NCBI GenBank assembly: GCA_030950485.1
Contig: JAUZRK010000001.1
Coordinates: 39,998 to 103,997 of the forward strand
Length of the DNA stretch: 64,000 nt
Direction: 5' to 3'
Source of the DNA: Candidatus Dojkabacteria bacterium
GTDB taxonomy: Bacteria; Patescibacteriota; Dojkabacteria; J137
The translations under genes were made by a program, and so were the position numbers. A model generated the notes under the pieces. It was not told the origin of the DNA and searched no databases. It worked only from the letters and a program-made list of their open reading frames with translations. Of the stretch, positions 30,916-59,796 are shown one piece after another (the stretch's first letter is position 1; each line of letters begins with the position of its first letter).

Positions 30916-31617
30916 TCATATAAACTCCCTTTTTTTACTATTATATGTATTAACTACAGCACTTCCAACAACTGCAATATCAGCATGTTGTGATAACGCT
31001 TTAATATGTTCAGATTTGGAAATTCCATAACCTACAGCAATTTCAGTTTTAATATATTTTTTTACTCTATTAATATGACTAGATAATTCTGGGTCTAATT
31101 CACTTTTTTCACCAGTCGTTCCTTTTCTACTTGATAAATAAATTAAATCTTTTGCGTACTTTGCATTTTTCTTTATCCTCTCATCAGTACTTGTCGGAGC
31201 AAGAAGCCTAATTGGGTTAATATTATATTTCTGGCGTAATTCAATAAAATGTTCTTTATCTTCCATTTCAATTGAAATATCTGGAATTATTAATCCATAC
31301 GCACCAGCCTCAGACGAATCCTTAATAAATTTCTCGAGACTATAGGCGTTTAAAATATTGAAGTAAGTCATAAATATTAGCTTTGCTTTTACTTTAGAGC
31401 TCATTTCTTTCATTAGTTTAAAAGCATCTTCTACTCTTGTACCATTTTCAGGTGCAATTCTATTAGCTTCCATTATTGTCGGTTCGTCTCCTAATGGGTC
31501 AGAAAAAGGGATCTGAAGTTCGATATAGCTAACTCCAACTTCGTCCATAGCCTCAATTAATTTCCTTGATTCTTCTAAAGTTGGGTATCCAACTACAATG
31601 TGTGTCATTAGTTTCAT
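30916..31617 (-). CDS. trpA: Tryptophan synthase alpha subunit (N-terminally short; possibly decaying)
   Basis: ..YIELQIPFSDPLGDEPTIMEANRIA.. (TrpA active-site region) and C-terminal ..IAVGYGISKSEHIKAL..VVGSAVV... 233 aa, about 20 aa shorter at the N-terminus than typical TrpA. Its partner trpB is a pseudogene. Confidence 0.7.
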   Translation of the reverse strand: MKLMTHIVVGYPTLEESRKLIEAMDEVGVSYIELQIPFSDPLGDEPTIMEANRIAPENGTRVEDAFKLMKEMSSKVKAKLIFMTYFNILNAYSLEKFIKDSSEAGAYGLIIPDISIEMEDKEHFIELRQKYNINPIRLLAPTSTDERIKKNAKYAKDLIYLSSRKGTTGEKSELDPELSSHINRVKKYIKTEIAVGYGISKSEHIKALSQHADIAVVGSAVVNTYNSKKREFI

Positions 31618-31776
31618 AAATTTGTTGTAATTTAAAATATAATTTTATATCTAATCCTTGTCGCATCCTCCCCGGCCCTCCTCCGAGCTCTAAGGAGAGA
31701 GAATGAGTTTGTGCCTTGAGCTGTACTTGCTTCCTCTATATGTAATGCCTTCTCTTTACAAATGAGAGGGAATTTT
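31605..31776 (+). repeat. Direct repeat copy 1 (about 170 bp) containing GC-rich palindromes; includes the trpA start region
   Basis: About 90% identical to 32315..32484 (..tcattagtttcataaatttgttgtaatttaaa..gtcgcatcctccccggccctcctccgagctctaaggagag..gagctgtacttgcttcctctatatgtaatgccttctctttacaaatgagagggaatt). Confidence 0.8.
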
Positions 31777-31830
31777 GATCGCTACTACCTCCTTCCATGC
31801 CTCGGCCGCTATTAATTATGAAGGAATTAC

Positions 31831-32238
31831 TCACTCATTCTCTCCGTCAGCTATGCGGTCCTCCCTTCCGCGAAAGGAGGGTTGGGAGGGATGCTGCAAC
31901 AACCACAGCTTAATTCTCTCCACAACTCCCCCAACATTACTCATAATTTCATAATTCCAAAATCTTACAACTCGATATCCCATCCCATTTAACACTCTAG
32001 TTCTTTCAACATCATATTCTCTTCTACTCAAATGAACCTCTCCATCTACTTCGATAACTAACTTATACTTTGCAATATAGAAATCAACTATATATCTACC
32101 AATTACTTTCTGTCTTAGAACTCTAACACCTAATTTATCTCGTCTGATTTCTTGCCATAATATGTTTTCAGACTTTGCCATATTAGTTCTATTCTCCCTA
32201 GCAAATTTCTTTATCCTTCTCATAAAAAAAATTAGCAT
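31831..32238 (-). CDS. DUF559 / Vsr-like (restriction-endonuclease-fold) domain protein, inserted between trpB and trpA
   Basis: ..ILWQEIRRDKLGVRVLRQKVIGRYIVDFYIAKYKLVIEVDGEVHLSRREYDVERTRVLNGMGYRVVRFWNYEI.. matches the DUF559 consensus. Its C-terminal 20 codons are encoded by an inverted partial copy of the flanking repeat (31831..31900). Confidence 0.65.
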   Translation of the reverse strand: MLIFFMRRIKKFARENRTNMAKSENILWQEIRRDKLGVRVLRQKVIGRYIVDFYIAKYKLVIEVDGEVHLSRREYDVERTRVLNGMGYRVVRFWNYEIMSNVGGVVERIKLWLLQHPSQPSFRGREDRIADGENE

Positions 32239-32314
32239 AGGTTTCGATTATTCAATCATCCAAAATCTTATCTTTGTAAGCTTCTTGAAAGCTTTCTGAC
32301 ACTCTTTCAATTGT

Positions 32315-32484
32315 TCATTAATTTCATAAATTTGCTGTAATTTAAACTTTATTTTATATTTAGTCTTTGTCGCATCCTCCCCGGGCCTCCTTCGAGCTCG
32401 AAGGAGGGAGAATTAGTTTGGGCCTCGAGCTGTACTTGCTTCCTCTATATGTAATGCCTTCTCTTCACAAATGAGAGGGAATTC
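32315..32484 (+). repeat. Direct repeat copy 2 (about 170 bp), with perfect 20-bp palindrome CTCCTTCGAGCTCGAAGGAG; carries a decayed duplicate of the trpA start (MKLMNN*)
   Basis: Aligns with 31605..31776. Weaker similarity continues about 60 bp upstream, into a degraded trpA 5' coding fragment. Confidence 0.8.
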
Positions 32485-32526: not shown

Positions 32527-33841
32527 TTAGAAAAATTCACTTTTACTTTTTACTTTTGCCTTCAAATAATCCCTAAACCCCTCATCCCCAAACTCCTCAG
32601 TCAGAATAAATAAGTCTTTATCTCCACGTCCAGATAAATTAATCACAATTACATCTTCCTTCTTAGTCTTAGGAACAAATTTAATTGCGTATGCGACAGC
32701 GTGCAATGATTCTAAAGTACCTATTATTCCTTCAGTTGCTGCTAATGTTTTAAAAGCTTCTTTTACTTTATTATCAGTAGCGTGTTCATACTTCACTCTA
32801 CCCTGCTCGTATAGCATTGCATGTTGAGGGCCGATACCTGCGTAATCTAGGCCTGCAGAAATACTGTGAGTAGGTTGAACTTGGCCGTCAGTATCCTGTA
32901 GAAAATATGATTTATAAACCTTCTACAACACCAATTTTTGGATCATTATTAAGTCTAGATGCATGATCACCTATTTCTTTAACTCCTTTCCCCCCTGCCT
33001 CAACTGCTATTAAATTAACTTCTTTATCATCTAGAAAAGTATTAAATATTCCGATTGAGTTACTTCCACCTCCAACACAAGCAATAATATAACTTGGTTT
33101 AGTTTCTCCATACTTTGTTATTTGCTCCTTAACTTCTAACCCTATAATAGATTGAAAACCTCTAACCATTGATGGATAGGGATGCGGTCCTAATGCAGAT
33201 CCTAGTAGATAATAGCTATCGTCGACATTTGCAATCCAATCTTGAATTGCAGCTGTAACCGCGTCTTTTAATCGTCTTGTTCCATGCTTTATCGGAACTA
33301 CTGTCGCTCCAAGGCTTTCCATCCAAAAAACATTCGGCCTTTGTCTTTTATAATCAACTTCTCCCATATAGACAATACATTCCATTCCAAATTTTGCCGC
33401 AACTGTTGCAGTTGCAAGTCCATGTTGACCAGCTCGGGTTTCGGCAATCAATCTTTTCTTCCCCATTCTTTTCGCCAGAAGGGCTTGACCTAAGCAGTGA
33501 TTAATTTTATGTGCTCCAGTATGGTTCAATCCTTCATTTTTTATATAAACTTTTCCTCCTCCTAATTTCTCAGTTAAGTTTTTAGCATAATATAAGGGTG
33601 TAGGTCTTCCTCAGTAATTTTTATATAAATCATTTAAAAATTCTGGATCATTTTTAGCAGCTATATAAGCATTTTCTAATTCTTCTAAAGCTGGTATTAA
33701 CATCTCAGGAACATACGCGCCACCATAATTACCAAAGAAGCCTTTATTATCTGAATCATATTGTGTCTTAATGAATACTTGCTTTACCATGTAGTTCGTC
33801 ATAATAAGTAAATTCTGGAGATAAAAGTTCATTAATCTCAT
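32527..33841 (-). pseudogene. trpB: Tryptophan synthase beta subunit, disrupted (in-frame TGA near 33593, frameshift near 32905-32915)
   Basis: Three fragments: 33611..33841 (..[14 protein letters not shown]..), 32912..33529 (..[41 protein letters not shown]..) and 32527..32817 (..NLSGRGDKD..). Reading through, ..[16 protein letters not shown].. shows a stop inside conserved sequence, and ..VVEGL*/..VYKSYFLQD.. needs a 1-nt shift. Confidence 0.8.
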
Positions 33842-34254: not shown

Positions 34255-34515
34255 TCAACTACTTTTTATTATTTTTAATTCACCATTTTTTAAAGCCTTT
34301 GATCCCCTTGTTACAGTAGCAACACCTACTCCTAATTTCTTTGCAATATCGTGGTGCTTTTCTCCTTTTAAAATTAATTCAACTATATCTATTCTTTTAG
34401 GAATTTCTTTCATTTCTTTTGCTGTAAGGATTCTTTTTAAGAATTTTGATATTTCTTTTGGATCATTTATCTCTGCTAGGATATCTACTAATTTGTTGAA
34501 ACTTGATTTTTTCAT
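34255..34515 (-). CDS. TrpR-like YerC/YecD-family small DNA-binding protein
   Basis: ..ILTAKEMKEIPKRIDIVELILKGEKHHDIAKKLGVGVATVTRGSKALKNG.. matches the YerC/YecD (Trp-repressor-like) family. 86 aa. Confidence 0.6.
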   Translation of the reverse strand: MKKSSFNKLVDILAEINDPKEISKFLKRILTAKEMKEIPKRIDIVELILKGEKHHDIAKKLGVGVATVTRGSKALKNGELKIIKSS

Positions 34516-42726: not shown

Positions 42727-44118
42727 TTGACCAAACCATATTCTAAAATTTTTGAACTTAAGTTTTTTTCTCACCTTATATTAATCTTACTTAGTTTTGG
42801 GATTTTAACTATACCCCTTGTTACTGGTTTTAATAATTATACTCTAGGAAGAGGTTGGGATTTGCCAAAGGTTAATTTATTAATGCAATTATTAGTATTA
42901 CTTAGTTTTTTAATACTAGTGCAAAAAACTTACTTAATCTCTATTAATAGACTGAACTTTAGTAGGGCTAAGAAGATTCTTCTGCCTATAGTTCTTTTAA
43001 CCTACCTATTTATAGTAACAATTAATTCTAGTTGGACTAGAAATTTAGATCCAGATACTGAATTAAATAGTATTTATAAGTTCCTCTTTCATAATATTCT
43101 TGGCAAGACTGAACTAATCGAAGTAAATCAATCTTTAGTCGGAAATGCATTTAGAGAGACTGGATTTGTGTTTTATTTTATCTTATTGGTATCTCTATTT
43201 CTAATCTCATCTTATATAAACAAAGATACTATTAAATATATATTTTTAGCTTTTATAACCTCTTCAATTTTACAGTCATTTATTGGGCTAAATCAGTTTT
43301 ATAGACTCTACCAAAATGACCCAGAAAATATTTTTCTTGGAGAAAGAGTTTATGGAAGCTTTGGGCAGGCAAATTTTTTTGCAGGACATATTTTTATTGG
43401 CTTCTTTATTTCGGCATTCTTATTAACTAATTATAAGCAAAGGTCAAAGCTTAAAAATATAATTCTTTCAATTTCAACTAGCTTAATACTTTTAACACTA
43501 ATACTGTCTTTTTCAATTTGGATTTATGTAATCATGGTTCTATCCTTACTATTTATTCTAATTTATAAATACTTTGATAAAAAATACTATAGGAAAGTAT
43601 TGGCATTATTTTTTATTTTATTAGCAATCCTAGCAGTTCCATTAGGTTCCTTATTTGTTAAATATAATAGTGAGTATGAACATAGAGTAACTATTTGGGA
43701 GGATGTTATTAGAGTTTATATTCAAAACCCAATTGATGGTAAAGATGATATTAAACTAATGTTATTTGGTTCAGGTTTTGATACTATGGGCGAAGAATTT
43801 AGAGAATGGAATAAAATTCCTGGGAACTACACAGATAGGTCGCATAATATAATTTTTGATACAATTGCTTTTACTGGAATTTTTGGATTAGTAGTACTAG
43901 CTTCCGGACTGATATACATTTTTCTTAGAAGAAGTAGTTTTAATAGTGAACATCAGTATTTGCTTTTTACACTTTTCTTCTTACTATTAGCTAGAAACTT
44001 AGTTCATACTTACTCTGCTGTAAACTTATTTGAGTTATTCTTGTTTGGTATAATTTTACTGAATAGTGGTTTATACACTACGAAAGATCTGCAATCTGAT
44101 AAAGAGATTGCAGCTTAA
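42727..44118 (+). CDS. Polytopic integral membrane protein (10+ TM; possibly O-antigen ligase/polymerase-like)
   Basis: 463 aa, almost entirely hydrophobic helices with one larger loop. Family not confirmed. Confidence 0.35.
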   Translation: MTKPYSKIFELKFFSHLILILLSFGILTIPLVTGFNNYTLGRGWDLPKVNLLMQLLVLLSFLILVQKTYLISINRLNFSRAKKILLPIVLLTYLFIVTINSSWTRNLDPDTELNSIYKFLFHNILGKTELIEVNQSLVGNAFRETGFVFYFILLVSLFLISSYINKDTIKYIFLAFITSSILQSFIGLNQFYRLYQNDPENIFLGERVYGSFGQANFFAGHIFIGFFISAFLLTNYKQRSKLKNIILSISTSLILLTLILSFSIWIYVIMVLSLLFILIYKYFDKKYYRKVLALFFILLAILAVPLGSLFVKYNSEYEHRVTIWEDVIRVYIQNPIDGKDDIKLMLFGSGFDTMGEEFREWNKIPGNYTDRSHNIIFDTIAFTGIFGLVVLASGLIYIFLRRSSFNSEHQYLLFTLFFLLLARNLVHTYSAVNLFELFLFGIILLNSGLYTTKDLQSDKEIAA

Positions 44119-45973
44119 ATCCTCTTTTATCATAATACTCTCTTGTCCCAATAGCTGAGATTACAGCCAGTTTACTAAATCCATTCTCTTTCGCAATCTC
44201 TTTAGATTTCTCGATTAATTTTGAACCTAAGCCTAAATGTTGAGCTTCACCTTTTGAACCTTTTGACAGTTCTAGACTTGGACCGTAAACATGTACCTCA
44301 CGAATAATTGCAGAATCTTTTAACTCATAAGATACACTTCTCATGCTTTGTCCCTCCCCTTGAGGGGAGGTTAGGTGGGGTGAATCACCCCGGTCTTTAC
44401 GTGGAACTGATAATCTCAAAAAACCAGCAATCTCTCTCTCCTTCGTTATGTATTGTAAAAAGTACTCAGTACTTACAGTTGTAGAGAATTTAATAATGTC
44501 TAATTCAAGATCATCAAAAGTAACCTTTTTTCCTTTAATTTCTCGAGCTCTGATATTTGGATTAGCTCTACTCTCTTTCTTTAATTTATATTCAACTACT
44601 TGTCTTAAATTTGTAGTTTTATTTCCAGCCTCAATTTCCGTTGAAGGTATATCTCTAATTACTCTAGTTATTCTAGTATACTCGGGTGCAGTCTCCATCA
44701 TCTCTGATATTAGTTTAATCAAGGTTTCATTATCATATGGTTCGTATTTGCCTTCTTCATATAAATCACTAAGCTCAGTGTTTTTGATAATTGATGTTGG
44801 ATAAATTTTCACTTCGTCAGGTTTATAATTTTCAGACTCATATAACTCATGCCAAGATTTCAAATCTATTTCTGGTCTTGCACCGTAAAGATTTGGCATC
44901 ATATGCGCATGGATTTTAAACCCAGCTTTACGAAGCAATGCAAATGCGTTCGCTGTGTGAACCTTATGTTCTCCTCTTTTATTTAAATCGCTTATATTGT
45001 CGTCTAAAACTTGGATTCCAAGTTGTACCTTAGTAGCTCCGAGTCTTCTCATTCTATAAACCTCTTTTTCAGTTATTAAATCGGGTCTAGTTTCTAAAAC
45101 TAAACCAACACATCTTATTTTCCTAATAGCATTAGTTTTATGTAAATCTTCTAATTCTTTCCATAAATCATCAACTGAAGTTTTACGATCGTATGTTTCT
45201 AAAGCTACATATTTATTTTCAAAACCTTCCTTAAACTCTTTAGTTCTTACAAGCTTATTATATGAATCATCTCCAATCTCATCTCTTAATTTTTCATTAT
45301 AATCCTTTGATAAATATTCTTTCATCTCAAGAGCACTTAGAGTATCTTGTTTATCGTCAACATCGCTACTTATTTCAAATTCCTGCATAGCTCTAAAACA
45401 TTCTTTAATAAACCAAACTTGATACTTTTCTGGATAAGATGACCAAGATCCACCAAGAATTAGTAGTTCAATCTTTTCAGTTGGATGACCAATATTTTTT
45501 AATGCTTTTAGTCTATTGAAAGTCTGTAGATATGGGCTAAATTTATTAGCTAAAGCCCTCTGCGCTCCTGGCTCTGTCGCTATATAACTCTTTGGCATTC
45601 TTACATCATTTGGACAGAAGACACACTTCCCAGGACACATCCAAGGTTTTGTGAAAACAGTTACAGTAGTTACTCCTGAAATAGTTCTAGTTGGTTTCAT
45701 TTTAATAAAACCTTTTAGCTTTTGAAAACTGGTATTATCTTTTACTTCTTTCTCTAACATCTCTATTCCTTGAATAAGTTGGTCTCTAGAAAAGAGTTCT
45801 GATTTATCTTTCGGATTATTTTTTAATATTCGTTCAATTTTTTGATTAAACTTTATTCTATTTTTTTGTGTTATTTTTCTAAATTCGTCAGTGTCTATCA
45901 AATCTAGGATTTGATTTAATATTATAGTTAGCTCAGTTTTATATACCTCAGGACTGAATTGATATTTTTTCAT
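44078..45973 (-). CDS. elp3: Elp3-like radical-SAM/GNAT tRNA modification enzyme (elongator protein 3 homolog)
   Basis: Radical SAM Cx3Cx2C (..TKPWMCPGKCVFCPNDV..), central Elp3 core, C-terminal GNAT (..REVHVYGPSL..HLGLGSKLIEKSKEIAKENGFSKLAVISAIGTREYYDKRGF). 631 aa. Carries an in-frame GC-rich palindromic insertion (44343..44402). Confidence 0.8.
   Translation of the reverse strand: MKKYQFSPEVYKTELTIILNQILDLIDTDEFRKITQKNRIKFNQKIERILKNNPKDKSELFSRDQLIQGIEMLEKEVKDNTSFQKLKGFIKMKPTRTISGVTTVTVFTKPWMCPGKCVFCPNDVRMPKSYIATEPGAQRALANKFSPYLQTFNRLKALKNIGHPTEKIELLILGGSWSSYPEKYQVWFIKECFRAMQEFEISSDVDDKQDTLSALEMKEYLSKDYNEKLRDEIGDDSYNKLVRTKEFKEGFENKYVALETYDRKTSVDDLWKELEDLHKTNAIRKIRCVGLVLETRPDLITEKEVYRMRRLGATKVQLGIQVLDDNISDLNKRGEHKVHTANAFALLRKAGFKIHAHMMPNLYGARPEIDLKSWHELYESENYKPDEVKIYPTSIIKNTELSDLYEEGKYEPYDNETLIKLISEMMETAPEYTRITRVIRDIPSTEIEAGNKTTNLRQVVEYKLKKESRANPNIRAREIKGKKVTFDDLELDIIKFSTTVSTEYFLQYITKEREIAGFLRLSVPRKDRGDSPHLTSPQGEGQSMRSVSYELKDSAIIREVHVYGPSLELSKGSKGEAQHLGLGSKLIEKSKEIAKENGFSKLAVISAIGTREYYDKRGFKLQSLYQIADLS
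44350..44393 (+). repeat. GC-rich palindromic element (CCTCCCCTTGAGGGGAGG + GGGGTGAATCACCCC) inserted in-frame within elp3
   Basis: Two adjacent palindromes in an otherwise AT-rich gene, encoding ..DRGDSPHLTSPQGEGQSMRS... Related to copies at 56454..56492 and 59749..59796. Confidence 0.7.
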
Positions 45974-56041: not shown

Positions 56042-56341
56042 CTAATGAGAGTGATGATGTGAATTCAATCTATCTAAAATTAATCTATATCCGTCCATTC
56101 CATTTTTCAAGAATCTATTAACTCTTGTAACAGTAGCAATACTAACGCCAGCCTCTGTTGCAACCTGTCTCTGTGGCTTACCTTTATCTAACTCCTTTGC
56201 GACTTCAAATCTTGATGAAAATTCTTCAATTTCTTTCTCAGTCAAAAGATCTCGCATAAAGTTAGCAGCCTCATCAACTGTCTTTAGTTTCAAGATTGCT
56301 TCAAATAAGTCCTCTGATTTTTTATTTTTCCATTTTATCAT
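56042..56341 (-). CDS. TrpR-like YerC/YecD-family small DNA-binding protein (second copy; His-rich C-terminus)
   Basis: ..LLTEKEIEEFSSRFEVAKELDKGKPQRQVATEAGVSIATVTRVNRFLKNG.. ending NSHHHSH. Confidence 0.55.
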   Translation of the reverse strand: MIKWKNKKSEDLFEAILKLKTVDEAANFMRDLLTEKEIEEFSSRFEVAKELDKGKPQRQVATEAGVSIATVTRVNRFLKNGMDGYRLILDRLNSHHHSH

Positions 56342-56453
56342 AGCGTAATATTACACTAATACATGTGATTTTGTCAATGACAACTTGAGTTTCTTACTCA
56401 AGAGCCATACCTGCAAAAAGTCAGGCGACATAATACAATGAAATGCACACTGC

Positions 56454-56492
56454 CTTTCTCCCCCTTGAGGGGGATTTAAGGGGGTGACCCTG
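56454..56492 (+). repeat. GC-rich palindromic element (CTTTCTCCCCCTTGAGGGGGATTTAAGGGGGTGACCCTG)
   Basis: Core perfect palindrome TCCCCCTTGAGGGGGA at 56459-56474. Near-identical copy at 59749..59796; degenerate copy inside elp3. Confidence 0.75.
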
Positions 56493-56751
56493 TGAGTGAT
56501 GATATGAAGATCTTCCCATAAAGGAATACACTGCATCACATTAAAAACTTATTTTCTTTTGTTAAGTTTTGCAGTAATAACGACGGGCAATGATGTATCA
56601 GCTTCGGCAGGACTAACTCCGCCAAAGAGAGGGTAATTCAATTTGAAACCAAGTTAGTTACTACAAGTTACAACAAGAGTAAATCAGATTTAACTCTTCC
56701 AGTATAAAGAATTTAAAAAATTAGCAATCTAATACACCTAACATACTCGTT

Positions 56752-57471
56752 TTAATCCCTCCTATTATTTGAACTAACAAGCATTACAAAATAAGCTAAC
56801 TGACCTAGTGATTGAACAAGACCAGCAAAGTAAGTAAGCGCTGCAGCTCTTAGTACAACCTTCGCTCCGCCATAGTGACTAGGGGCTATAAGACCGTGCT
56901 TTTCAATTAACTTCATAGCTCTTCTACTAGCATCTAGTTCAACTGGTAATGTTACTAATGAAAATACAGTGACAGTAGAAAAAAGAATTATCCCAACCCA
57001 AGCAAGTCCGCTTGAAGCAATCATTAATCCAATCATTATTAATACATACCCTACTCCTGAACCGAAGCTTACAACTGGTACTATTGTCGATCTTAATTTA
57101 AATAAACTTTGACCAACTTGCTTTTGCTGAACGTGACCAAATTCGTGTGCGACAACTGCAATATTTGCAACTGAGTCATTTACTGCGTTATCAGAAGATA
57201 AATTTACTAAATTATTTTTTGGGTCAAAGTAATCATTGAGTTGCCCTTCTGTTGTTTGAAAACTAACGCCAAAATTTCCTGAATCATTTATAAGTTTTGC
57301 AGCCTGCATTCCAGTCATAGACGTACCTGCAGAAATTTTTGAAAATTTCCCATAACTTCTTTTAAGTAAGAACTGTGCATATAGCCCTATTATCAATCCT
57401 GGTAATACGAATAGTAAATATAGAAACATTATTTTAATTTTAATAAATACATTACTTAAATATTTTATCAT
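56752..57471 (-). CDS. YugP-family membrane zinc metallopeptidase
   Basis: N-terminal TM, ..VVAHEFGHVQQ.. HExxH, C-terminal TM helices. Typical Zn_peptidase_2 (YugP) layout. Confidence 0.65.
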   Translation of the reverse strand: MIKYLSNVFIKIKIMFLYLLFVLPGLIIGLYAQFLLKRSYGKFSKISAGTSMTGMQAAKLINDSGNFGVSFQTTEGQLNDYFDPKNNLVNLSSDNAVNDSVANIAVVAHEFGHVQQKQVGQSLFKLRSTIVPVVSFGSGVGYVLIMIGLMIASSGLAWVGIILFSTVTVFSLVTLPVELDASRRAMKLIEKHGLIAPSHYGGAKVVLRAAALTYFAGLVQSLGQLAYFVMLVSSNNRRD

Positions 57472-57569: not shown

Positions 57570-59671
57570 ATGTACAATTTTAGTAAATATACTCATATAA
57601 TGTCTATTCTTTCATCAAAATCAAAAGTAAAAGAATATATTCTTCAAAAAGTAGTAATTAAGATTGCTGTTCCTAAAGACAATGAGAAACAGTCTGAGTC
57701 TGCAGTTCAACTTTTCCAAGCTATTCATGGAACTTTACGTAATAAAATGATTTTGGAAGATCATTTTAGTTTAGAACTTATTGGAAATGGTGACGGAGTA
57801 TTTTTTATTGTTGTATGCGAAGAGCGATACTATAAATTCGTTGAAAGCCAAATATACGCTGCTTATCCCGATTCTGAAATTACTAGGATTAATGATTATG
57901 TAAATTTAGATATTTTGAAAAGTTTTTCAATAGAATCAAGTAAACTTACTCTAAAGAAGCCTAGTTATTTGCCAATAAAAACATATGATCGATTTAATAC
58001 TGATCCTATTGCTCCTTTAATATCAGTTATTTCAAAACTACCCGCTACTCAAAGCGCTTGGATACAGATTTTAATTCGTCCTGTAAGTAATTCAATTAGT
58101 GAATTAGGTAAAAGATATATTAAAAGGATTTCAAAAACTGTAAATGAACAAGGGAAAGAAGTTAGTTTAAGCTTAGATAATGATCAAAGAGAAGAAATTA
58201 GACAAATAGAAAATAGAAGTAATTCTGATGGATTTCAATTCTTAATTAGAATTCTTACAATTGCTGGTACTACTTCAGATGCTAATTATGCACTTGAAGA
58301 TATTGAAGCAAGTTTCAATCAATTCGATAGTTCGAAATTAAATGGGTTTAAAGAAAAAATAGATAAGAAAGGCTTTCTAGGTGAACTTATAGGAAACGAA
58401 GATTTAACTATCGAAAGTCGTTATTTAAATAGATTTTTAGATGACAATGAAAAAGGAATCTTAAATACTCAAGAAACTGCATCTGTATTTCATTTACCAA
58501 ATAAATCAGTAAAAATTACGCAACTAAACTGGTCTAGTAGTACAAAGCTTCAAGTTCCAAATGACCTACCAGTAATAAATACTCAGATCGACTTAAACCA
58601 TAATAATTTTGATATTAAATATTCTTCCGAATTTTTACATACTGGAGTTAGATACTTTGGTCTTACTGATTACAGAAATAACCACTTCCCTTTTGGAATA
58701 AAAAGAGAAGATCGAAGAAGACATATGTATCTTCTTGGAAAAACAGGAACTGGAAAGTCATTGTTCATTAAAAACATGGTTTTTGATGATTTATATGATG
58801 GTGAAGGATTTGCAGTAATAGATCCTCATGGCGATTTAGTAGAAGAGATTTTAGAGCTAATTCCTGAGCATAGAAAAAATGATGTTGTCTATCTTGACCC
58901 TTCAGATATCGATAATCCTATTGGTTTAAATATGCTTGATATTAAAGAAGGAGAATCAAAAGAGCTTTTAGCAGATGGTATTGTTTCTGTTTTTATTAAA
59001 TTATTTGGTCATTCTTGGGGACCGAGATTACAACATATTCTTCATAATACTGTACTAACACTACTCCACTGCCAAAATGTTTCATTATTGGCGGTTCAAC
59101 GGATATTACTAGATGGGAATTATAGAAAATTCTTATTAAATCATTACTATCTTACTTAGTTCAGACATTGTTATATCTTCCTCTTGATCAACAACGTGAT
59201 TTCTATCTTTATGTCGATGAATTCCAGAATTTTGCTACTACTACTTTTATTAAAATACTCTCTGAAGCGTGTAAATATGCCCTTAATTTGCTTGTAACTC
59301 ATCAATATATAGATCAGATAGAACCTAGTATTCAAGACGCAATTCTTGGTAATGTAGGGACTTTAGTCAACTATGTTGTTGGTCCTAAGGATGCCAGTAG
59401 ATTAGAGAGAGAATATACTCCGCATCTCTCTTCTGAAGATCTAGTAAATCAAGAGAAATTCAACTTTGTTATTAAAGAAACAATTGATGGCGCTCAGTCC
59501 TATCCTTTTACCGGGGAGCTAATGTTAATGGATCTTCATAAGTCTAATTTAAAGGAAGAGGTTAAACATCTTTCTAGAGCTAACTACTCTACTAAAAGAG
59601 ATATTGTAGAGGAAAAACTTCATAAATGGGCTACTAATAAATATAACGATAAGGGGAATCTTATTTCCTAA
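57570..59671 (+). pseudogene. VirD4/TraG/TraD-like (type IV coupling protein family) AAA ATPase, split by a frameshift near 59140-59165
   Basis: Walker A ..MYLLGKTGTGKSLF.., ..FAVIDPHGDL... Second ORF (TTG start at 59168) carries Walker B ..FYLYVDEFQNFA.. and a TraD/TraG C-terminal-like ..LNLLVTHQYIDQI..AILGNVGTLVNYVVGPKDASRL... The frames differ by one nucleotide. Confidence 0.55.
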
Positions 59672-59748
59672 TTTTGGCGACATACTAGATATATCCGTTA
59701 GCTGCGTGGTTAATGAGTCATAGCAACAATGAAGGCTAAAAAAGACTG

Positions 59749-59796
59749 TCTTTCTCCCCCTAGAGGGGGATTTAAGGGGGTGATCCTGTTCGGGGG
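59749..59796 (+). repeat. GC-rich palindromic element (CTTTCTCCCCCTAGAGGGGGATTTAAGGGGGTGATCCTGTTCGGGGGG)
   Basis: Core TCCCCCTAGAGGGGGA at 59755-59770. About 90% identical to 56454..56492. Confidence 0.75.

Follow-up and report, generated by a model that had tools for sequence, protein, structure and literature searches.

What occupies the space between trpB and trpA at this locus, and do the parts found there belong together? The question arises in a 64,000-nucleotide stretch of a Candidatus Dojkabacteria genome (contig JAUZRK010000001.1; hereafter the window, in whose coordinates all positions are given; GC ~31%), where an open reading frame (ORF) for a DUF559 nuclease and copies of a GC-rich palindromic motif lie between the two trp genes, all genes of the locus being on the minus strand. 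The original prediction saw here a third, new type of element, resembling a miniature inverted-repeat transposable element (MITE), whose insertion had remodelled the C-terminus of the DUF559 protein. On balance, we favour another reading, in which a cassette made of the DUF559 gene and an intrastrand-triplex motif was inserted or rearranged at the trpB/trpA junction; this preference bears on the statement as worded, its descriptive and mechanistic parts together, and of the descriptive part we are highly confident.

The DUF559 gene and the 170-bp repeats between trpB and trpA

Read along the gene strand, the trpB stop codon is followed by 42 nt, copy 2 of a 170-bp direct repeat ('U'), 76 nt, the DUF559 ORF ending in an inverted motif ('T'), 56 nt, copy 1 of the repeat ('D') and trpA. 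The inverted motif pair, U and T, encloses the ORF, and the direct copy D lies beyond it. The features are as follows.

trpB, 32527..33841, minus strand: three ORF pieces with PALP matches; stop codon at 32527-32529
Direct repeat copy 2 (U), 32315..32484, minus strand: upstream of DUF559 in gene sense; two pyrimidine-first hairpins and a trpA pseudo-start
Triplex motif of copy 2, 32373..32407, minus strand: class II (C-G-G) intrastrand-triplex motif, CCTCCTTCG-AGCT-CGAAGGAGG-CCCGG-GGAGGATG, including the perfect palindrome at 32387-32406
Duplicated trpA start, 32315..32327, minus strand: ATGAAATTAATGA, matching the true trpA start ATGAAACTAATGA at 31617..31605
DUF559 ORF, 31831..32238, minus strand: Vsr-like PD-(D/E)xK endonuclease of 135 codons; the public annotation uses the second ATG, giving 130 aa
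Degenerate inverted triplex motif (T), 31860..31894, plus strand: CCTCCCTT-CCGCGA-AAGGAGGG-TT-GGGAGGGATGC, with TT as a 'type A-like' second loop
12-nt block, 31833..31844, plus strand: ACTCATTCTCTC, in the last codons of the ORF; exact reverse complement of 31697-31708 in copy 1, forming the second collinear block of the inverted similarity
Direct repeat copy 1 (D), 31605..31774, minus strand: downstream of DUF559; its final 13 nt are the true trpA start
Triplex motif of copy 1, 31664..31698, minus strand: decayed, with two substitutions that break stem pairs 6-15 and 7-14; fails the strict motif finder
39-nt block, 31718..31756 and 32427-32465, no strand assigned: identical in both repeat copies, overlapping the second pyrimidine-first hairpin (31748-31772; 32457-32481)
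trpA, 30916..31617, minus strand: Pfam Trp_syntA, E 1e-59; short-form N-terminus MKLMTH, also present in homologue N-termini

Around the nearest TrpA homologues, the two genes share 1-4 nt, and the ribosome-binding site falls within the final codons of trpB; the entire 909 bp found in the window between the trpB stop and the trpA start would therefore be inserted DNA. The trpB C-terminus aligns with its homologues to within 3 residues, and an N-terminus comparison finds the MKLMTH start common to dozens of TrpA homologues.

The repeat had been predicted as ~170 bp in two direct copies, and so it is: 31605-31774 and 32315-32484 align over 170 nt with 90.6% identity and one gap (E 1e-63), identity stops sharply at both boundaries, and a similarity search returned no further copy in the 64-kb window. 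The repeat ends 13 nt into trpA, at codon 4-5, and as this end is the genuine trpA start, the duplicated segment is 157 nt of inserted motif-bearing DNA plus 13 nt of trpA. In copy 2, the trpA pseudo-start now opens a dead-end ORF with a stop after six codons. Each 170-bp unit carries two pyrimidine-first hairpins ~60 nt apart, and no terminal inverted repeats were detected between its ends. The perfect palindrome announced for copy 2 is also there (20 nt, CTCCTTCGAGCTCGAAGGAG, 32387-32406), and its version in copy 1 is weakened by two substitutions.

A second, independent public assembly (L001) covers the same locus and is 98.6% identical to the window, with 80 gap openings in 14.4 kb. Assemblies so rich in indels might suggest that the duplication itself came from a collapsed or chimeric long-read assembly. 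However, both repeat copies are base-for-base the same in L001, from which it follows that the 15 differences between them are real, and we virtually discount an artefact of this kind. Note that the gene split in the window is trpB, in three pieces, and in L001 is trpA instead; these splits are probably long-read assembly indel errors and not pseudogenes.

Other origins and roles for the repeat were considered and set aside. A longer ancestral duplication reaching further into trpA or trpB was rejected, as no similarity extends past either repeat end. The 65 nt on the trpA side resemble ('KLQQI') a decayed long-form TrpA N-terminus, an idea dropped because a profile of 56 homologue extensions missed the repeat among the six-frame peptides of the window; the trpA-derived part is taken to be limited to the 13-nt ATGAAAYTAATGA. 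A search for a regulatory RNA (T-box, attenuator, riboswitch) in Rfam ended without a match at gathering scores, the 1.3-kb region yielding nothing beyond noise at E>0.7, and the RNA folds of both copies are no better than those of shuffles (z ~ -0.5). Consensus scans yielded seven promoter-like sites, not significantly above the 4.0 (sd 1.7) averaged by shuffles, and one terminator-like site against 0.8 in shuffles, with no T-run after the hairpins.

The protein is an ordinary DUF559. It matches Pfam PF04480 over residues 8-110 (E 1.6e-33, 115 bits, gathering cutoff 20.6), PDB 3HRL (E 1.6e-18) and NCBIfam PRK09767 (YcjD; E 8e-19), the latter at 67.8 bits and so below the equivalog threshold (curated cutoff 218), and is 100% identical to a public protein (P0001) annotated as Candidatus Dojkabacteria, of the candidate phyla radiation (CPR). 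The nuclease looks intact from its sequence, because all 15 invariant alignment columns are kept.

Motif class and the C-terminal tail of the DUF559 protein

Knowledge of BoxC/PIT/TM motifs goes back to the 1990s; hundreds of bacterial genomes contain them, at unstable loci, and neither a protein partner nor a mechanism of spreading had been found for them. The literature on them reportedly includes work by Bachellier et al in the 1990s and by Hoyne and Maher in 2000. The class II 'C-G-G' intrastrand-triplex motif was named BoxC first, PIT elements next and TM/TMECO last (Holder et al, 2015; PMC4666352); the ITxF criteria call for a stem of 6-15 nt and loops of 1-6 nt, and tolerate a single mismatch in stems longer than 7 nt (PMC4666352). 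Motifs were located with a home-made three-arm finder whose criteria are close to those of Holder et al (2015), the layout being a pyrimidine arm, a purine arm complementary to it and a second purine arm that mirrors the first, separated by a loop and a short loop, respectively.

The copy 2 motif has the three-block architecture and lies within the ITxF limits (an 8-nt stem, a first loop of 6 nt and a second of 5, a single mismatch in the third arm), whereas T and copy 1 fit only with a bulge or mismatches. Over the 64 kb of the window, the strict finder returned four motifs, against none in 20 shuffles: 32373-32407(-), 44353-44380(+), 56459-56485(+) and 59755-59781(+), which fall into three sequence subtypes. 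T reads C-C-G on the gene strand, as the reverse complement of the motif, and has a TT second loop, as compared with the CC(C)G(G) second loop of the flanking copies. In E. coli, the TTA-loop 'type A' is paired in inverted orientation with the CCG-loop 'type B' at five sites (Holder et al, PMC4666352), and the window shows both the A/B inverted pairing and, in copy 2, a second loop that resembles the CCG of type B.

The likeness to BoxC/PIT/TM extends to the three-block architecture, GC-rich and C-first with short loops, to the intergenic and, as far as the 64 kb of the window can indicate, apparently dispersed placement, and to the tie with local rearrangement. It does not extend to sequence: the arms here (CCTCCTT / AAGGAGG / GGAGGA) are unrelated to the E. 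coli consensus CCCTCTCCC / GGGAGAGGG / GGGTGAGGG, from which they differ throughout, and no homology to the TMECO consensus was seen. The host also differs, being a CPR genome of 31% GC, as does the translation of one copy as a protein tail; and the published work reports no associated gene, whereas the motifs here bracket a nuclease gene. By its architecture, the window motif belongs to the BoxC/PIT/TM structural class, which is already known, and not to the enterobacterial sequence family.

One of the strict motifs, CCTCCCCTTGAGGGGAGGTTAGGTGGGG at 44353-44380 (+), lies inside an ELP3-like radical-SAM/acetyltransferase ORF (44078..45973, minus strand), where it is read in frame as ..RGDSPHLTSPQGEGQSM... 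Rickettsia palindromic elements (RPEs) are 100-150 bp long and are read in frame within proteins of an AT-rich reduced genome. Judged from its reading frame, the ELP3-like case resembles an RPE inserted in frame into a housekeeping protein, and is the true counterpart of an RPE in the window, palindromic and read in frame, although unrelated to RPEs in sequence and architecture. The DUF559 tail differs from an RPE in lying at the end of the ORF, at a position conserved among homologues, and is therefore not a secondary internal insertion.

As to the inverted partial copy, the similarity is real and smaller than had been claimed. With blastn (E<=10), it reduces to a single 12-nt exact word (31833-31844 against 31697-31708), and under strict scoring shuffled sequences do as well in 8 of 1000 trials with copy 1 and in 254 of 1000 with copy 2. 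With lenient gaps, two collinear blocks align (TTG..GCATCC..CCC..CCCTCCT and GAGAGAATGAGT), 40 of 72 columns being identical, or ~77% when a 16-nt indel (16-21 nt, according to the copy) is set aside, and this alignment exceeds shuffles at p = 0.0005 for copy 1 and p = 0.0015 for copy 2. What stands is thus a short, gapped match above chance, spanning ~50 of the 170 nt and not the entire repeat. The long hairpin proposed between copy 1 and the inverted copy fared likewise: a DNA fold of 31640-31910 does pair the two, with a modest excess over shuffles (z = -2.16; 3 of 200 shuffles as good).

The inverted copy does supply the last ~20 codons of DUF559, as had been predicted. The Pfam match stops at residue 110 and the GC core of T corresponds, on the gene strand, to codons 115-127 (QHPSQPSFRGRED) of the 135-codon ORF 32238..31831, from which we conclude that the element encodes the tail. 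The outer part of T on the gene strand, GCAGCATCCCTCCCAACCCTCCTT, shares 22 of 24 bases with a motif in a Lysobacterales genome, L008 (GCAGCATCCTCCCCAACCCTCCTT).

This tail is not a peculiarity of the window. DUF559 homologues from other phyla carry P..P..G(E/R)G tails (..P.P..G[ER][GR]..), a pattern that is the translation of a C-arm/G-arm hairpin, and the closest homologue (P0002, 54% identity) ends with ..STPSPP and its stop in a hairpin of its own, at the same alignment position. It had been proposed that homologues in other taxa sharing the tail without repeat DNA would speak against the element as its source; the tail type is indeed shared, and each tail is encoded by the homologue's own motif copy, so that the element belongs to the gene cassette and is not a later hit. 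The stop position relative to the hairpin drifts among homologues, from which we infer that the tail peptide arises incidentally, where the ORF runs into the motif, and is not a selected protein feature.

A new MITE-like palindromic family that inserted beside or into DUF559 and replaced its C-terminus, with copy 1 and the inverted copy forming a long-hairpin mobile unit, would account for the inverted similarity above chance (p ~0.001) and for the pairing of both cores in the DNA fold (z = -2.16), and inverted motif pairs do occur as units in E. coli. The 170-bp unit is, like a MITE, small, non-coding, structured and repeated. It differs from one in having neither terminal inverted repeats nor a short target duplication and in ending, on one side, in trpA sequence; its only two full copies in 64 kb are local and each flank the gene. 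The 3' hairpin is family-wide among DUF559 genes, the closest homologue already ending in one at the same position, and the motif class is a known one. Neither the new element type nor the remodelling of the C-terminus by insertion holds up, and we regard this explanation as improbable.

Triplex motifs at DUF559 loci from CPR bacteria to Escherichia coli

To place the window among other DUF559 loci, we compared 83 of them, chosen by similarity to the window protein (37-54% identity) and covering part of the DUF559 clades; 80 come from metagenomes, with a GC content of 0.32-0.68, and the controls were the ends of 83 genes next to them on these contigs. At least one strict triplex motif was present at the gene ends of 69 of the 83 DUF559 loci (83%), against 6 of the 83 control genes (7%). 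Motif density reaches 3.6/kb upstream of the DUF559 genes, 4.4/kb at the stop and 1.3/kb downstream, and is 0 inside the gene body, 0.33/kb at control gene ends and 0.17/kb elsewhere. Perfect pyrimidine-first hairpins give a similar picture (3.5/kb beside gene ends and 0.22/kb elsewhere in the same contigs), and the hairpins near DUF559 genes are C-first in 116 cases and G-first in one. A C-first GC hairpin lies in the interval -75..+60 nt around the stop in about 40 of the 80 metagenome homologues, and roughly half of these hairpins are inside the last codons, the others just after the stop.

Within a locus, the upstream and downstream copies match each other in direct orientation at 22 of 77 loci and in inverted orientation at 30 of 77, while cross-locus pairs match in ~1% of cases; they are therefore copies of one local element and not just generic matches to a motif. 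The two closest homologue loci share the U-gene-T-D layout of the window: L002 carries a motif-bearing direct repeat of 38 nt to either side of the gene, and a hairpin of its own spans the stop (the ..STPSPP end mentioned above), and L004 has one 54-nt element three times, upstream, in the tail and downstream. Around the neighbouring 23S-rRNA-IVP (four-helix-bundle) gene in L002, no motifs were seen. Long direct repeats of 87, 104, 106, 152 and 249 nt, made of two- or three-motif clusters, recur at other DUF559 loci; the longest (L081; 99.6% identity) takes in the 3' end of the upstream hsdS gene, together with motifs and the initial 30 nt of DUF559. Given this recurrence, the window structure is typical of a pattern and not a one-off. 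Overall, these data show that motif-bracketed DUF559 genes are the rule across phyla. We found no literature linking DUF559 or ycjD to BoxC or intrastrand-triplex motifs.

In L081 (116-2226), the C-terminus of the type I restriction S subunit (hsdS) itself reads through three triplex motifs (..PLPASPLAGGGEKKDFF.. twice), after which comes the DUF559 gene.

Motifs of the window's own subfamily were also sought by sequence. A genome contig scan with GCATCCTCCCCGGNCCTCCT returned seven loci, all in high-GC genomes and none in Dojkabacteria, of which three are same-subfamily triplex motifs in Gammaproteobacteria; a metagenome scan with the most conserved 20-mer, CTTCCTCTATATGTAATGCC, gave no match. 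Two metagenome-assembled genomes of Gammaproteobacteria contain clusters of alternating triplex-motif types (L008, 1600-1905; L011, 130-420), which share with the Dojkabacteria motif an outer GCATCC/GGATGC signature and CCCTCCTTCG arms, at a genome GC of 68% compared with 31%.

The same arrangement is found at ycjD of E. coli K-12, the NCBIfam DUF559 reference. The last codons of this gene (..RRSPSP) and its stop lie in a hairpin, beyond which part of the gene's 3' end is repeated; ~150 nt downstream stands CCCTCGCCCCTCTGGGGAGAGGGTTAGGGTGAGGGG, which is found letter for letter among the TMECO type A entries of Table 1 in Holder et al (PMC4666352). E. coli YcjD and the window protein thus share family and fold (PF04480, PDB 3HRL; Vsr being a remote relative) and the gene layout of a 3' hairpin and a nearby triplex motif. 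Across 5426 E. coli genomes, a 47-nt query made of the ycjD-adjacent TMECO and its flanks occurs at a median of 19 places per genome, and ycjD is present, as a single copy, in 3378. The site of the eefRABCD operon is taken by ycjD in lineages that lost eefRABCD (PMC12817139). In E. coli genomes without ycjD, the fabI-side homology resumes 42 nt beyond the TMECO, and in one genome with eef in place of ycjD the junction has no TMECO; the TMECO is therefore part of the ycjD-specific segment.

The 3'-end duplicate of ycjD is a degenerate stretch of ~70 nt (METVLENIRQGLNRP..) between the stop hairpin and the TMECO (L093, K-12 1351200-1351420), and is either the remnant of a second copy or a tandem duplication of part of the gene.

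Could the motifs be passive hot spots, stalling replication and so provoking illegitimate recombination, with duplication and gene capture as by-products and DUF559 as a repair or defence nuclease that survives in unstable islands and does not act on the motifs? Rearrangement is unusually common at TMECO loci, more so than at controls, and Holder et al (PMC4666352), who make no mention of DUF559, endonucleases or ycjD, never found mobility functions near TMECO sites. The variable motif orientation around DUF559 and the solo motifs with no DUF559 nearby would also suit such an account. However, the association is gene-specific, at 69 of 83 DUF559 loci and 6 of 83 neighbours in the same contigs, and holds at 32-68% GC and from a CPR bacterium to E. 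coli; moreover, the motif overlaps the ORF end at a conserved position, and in E. coli lies within the ycjD-specific segment. We consider passive hot spots an unlikely explanation.

A free-standing homing endonuclease is another candidate: DUF559 would cut the intact trpB/trpA junction and be copied in by break repair, the hairpins serving as expression or insulation signals. The insertion does fall precisely at the junction of two conserved genes that normally overlap, with the nuclease gene pointing the same way as they do, Vsr-fold homing endonucleases exist (e.g. I-Bth0305I), and PADLOC gives a weak 'homing endonuclease' match (E 3e-4). Against this, the homologues occur in unrelated contexts (rnhB/rplS, the hsdS 3' end, sapF/fabI), so there is no conserved target gene; the constant neighbour is the motif and not a host gene, and 170-bp flanking duplications are not a product of homing. 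We give homing little credence.

A possible mechanism, its counterparts and its significance

Returning to the cassette of DUF559 gene and triplex motifs, the events at the trpB/trpA junction can be pictured as follows. The motifs would be the functional ends of the cassette, and the 157 nt together with the trpA start were duplicated when the gene segment came between the copies; as the duplication includes the first 13 nt of trpA, this gene keeps an intact start. The nuclease may recognise or nick a non-B structure of the motif, be it a hairpin, a triplex or a mismatched alternative pairing. Pairing of the C-arm with the second G-arm instead creates mismatches. Vsr is a mismatch-directed nickase. 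Nicks, breaks or stalled forks at the motifs could then lead to insertion, to long flanking duplications and to the spread of solo motifs, and long duplications of variable length are what staggered, distant nicks might be expected to produce. Note that neither a methyltransferase partner nor a Vsr-type mismatch context is evident at the window locus, in which respect it differs from Vsr.

The nearest counterpart is the system formed by repetitive extragenic palindromic (REP) sequences or REPINs and REP-associated tyrosine transposases (RAYTs). There too, a nuclease-type gene present once has copies of a short hairpin repeat on its flanks, often in inverted orientation, and further copies of this repeat, single or in pairs, are scattered elsewhere; the repeat was likewise long an orphan. 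A gene flanked by a dispersed repeat is what we find in the window (U, T, D and the solo motifs), at 69 of 83 loci and at E. coli ycjD. The two systems differ in that RAYTs belong to the HUH/Y1 transposase family and DUF559 is PD-(D/E)xK and Vsr-like, that the repeat here has a third arm and that its orientation around the gene is less regular. As DUF559 is no relative of HUH/Y1 transposases, the likeness is one of analogy and not of membership. By this analogy, the nuclease might act on the motifs as RAYT does on REP, a tentative proposal to which we give somewhat less than an even chance. We hold more doubtful still, by the same analogy, the wider suggestion that DUF559 proteins including YcjD may be the cognate nucleases of BoxC/PIT/TM repeats, the gene and its motifs making up a minimal mobile or self-propagating module from CPR to enterobacteria, with solo motifs as non-autonomous offspring and the nuclease as the cause of TM-site instability; it would amount to a second REP-RAYT-like system, based on a PD-(D/E)xK nickase and a non-B DNA structure.

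Several points weigh against the cassette account. The best TrpA homologue is 57% identical, and with no close relative or empty site at hand the insertion is deduced from distant synteny. The copy count covers the 64-kb window, and more 170-bp units may exist elsewhere in the host genome. No strict motif was found at 14 of the 83 DUF559 loci, and motif orientation relative to the gene is variable (upstream, 36 C-G-G against 38 C-C-G), a looseness that is untidy for a strict terminal-repeat model. For the three gammaproteobacterial motifs of the same subfamily, the nearest 4 kb contain no DUF559 gene. No DUF559 protein is known to act biochemically on such motifs, and neither YcjD nor the DUF559 family has a known function. 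Finally, earlier in vivo work on PIT elements, cited in Holder et al (PMC4666352), recorded neither promoter or terminator activity nor an in vivo effect.

What appears to be new is the tight coupling of DUF559 and motif across phyla, the cassette-like geometry and the explanation of odd C-terminal tails. DUF559 is a very common nuclease family, and its physical link with the motifs (83% against 7%, from a CPR bacterium to E. coli K-12) offers a testable hypothesis for both orphans; E. coli, with ycjD and 23 TMECO sites, suits direct testing. The link also accounts for the P..P..GEG-type tails of 'endonuclease domain-containing' proteins, a common annotation oddity, and the window illustrates how a cassette can occupy an essential operon without destroying the downstream gene.

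Elsewhere in the window, a 45-nt direct repeat containing a triplex motif (56449-56493 and 59745-59789, 93% identical, 3.3 kb apart) encloses three ORFs, 56752..57471(-), 57570..59159(+) and 59168..59671(+), and may be another motif-bounded segment. Beside the trp genes, a small ORF at 34255..34515 (-) is Trp repressor-like (Pfam PF01371, E 8e-17), and a second small ORF at 56042..56341 (-) bears a resemblance to Trp repressor judged by eye from its sequence. Lastly, tandem units of ~102 nt between 35450 and 38170 encode Cys-rich CG(D/N)G..CDDGN repeats in two large ORFs, with a GC content of up to 0.39.

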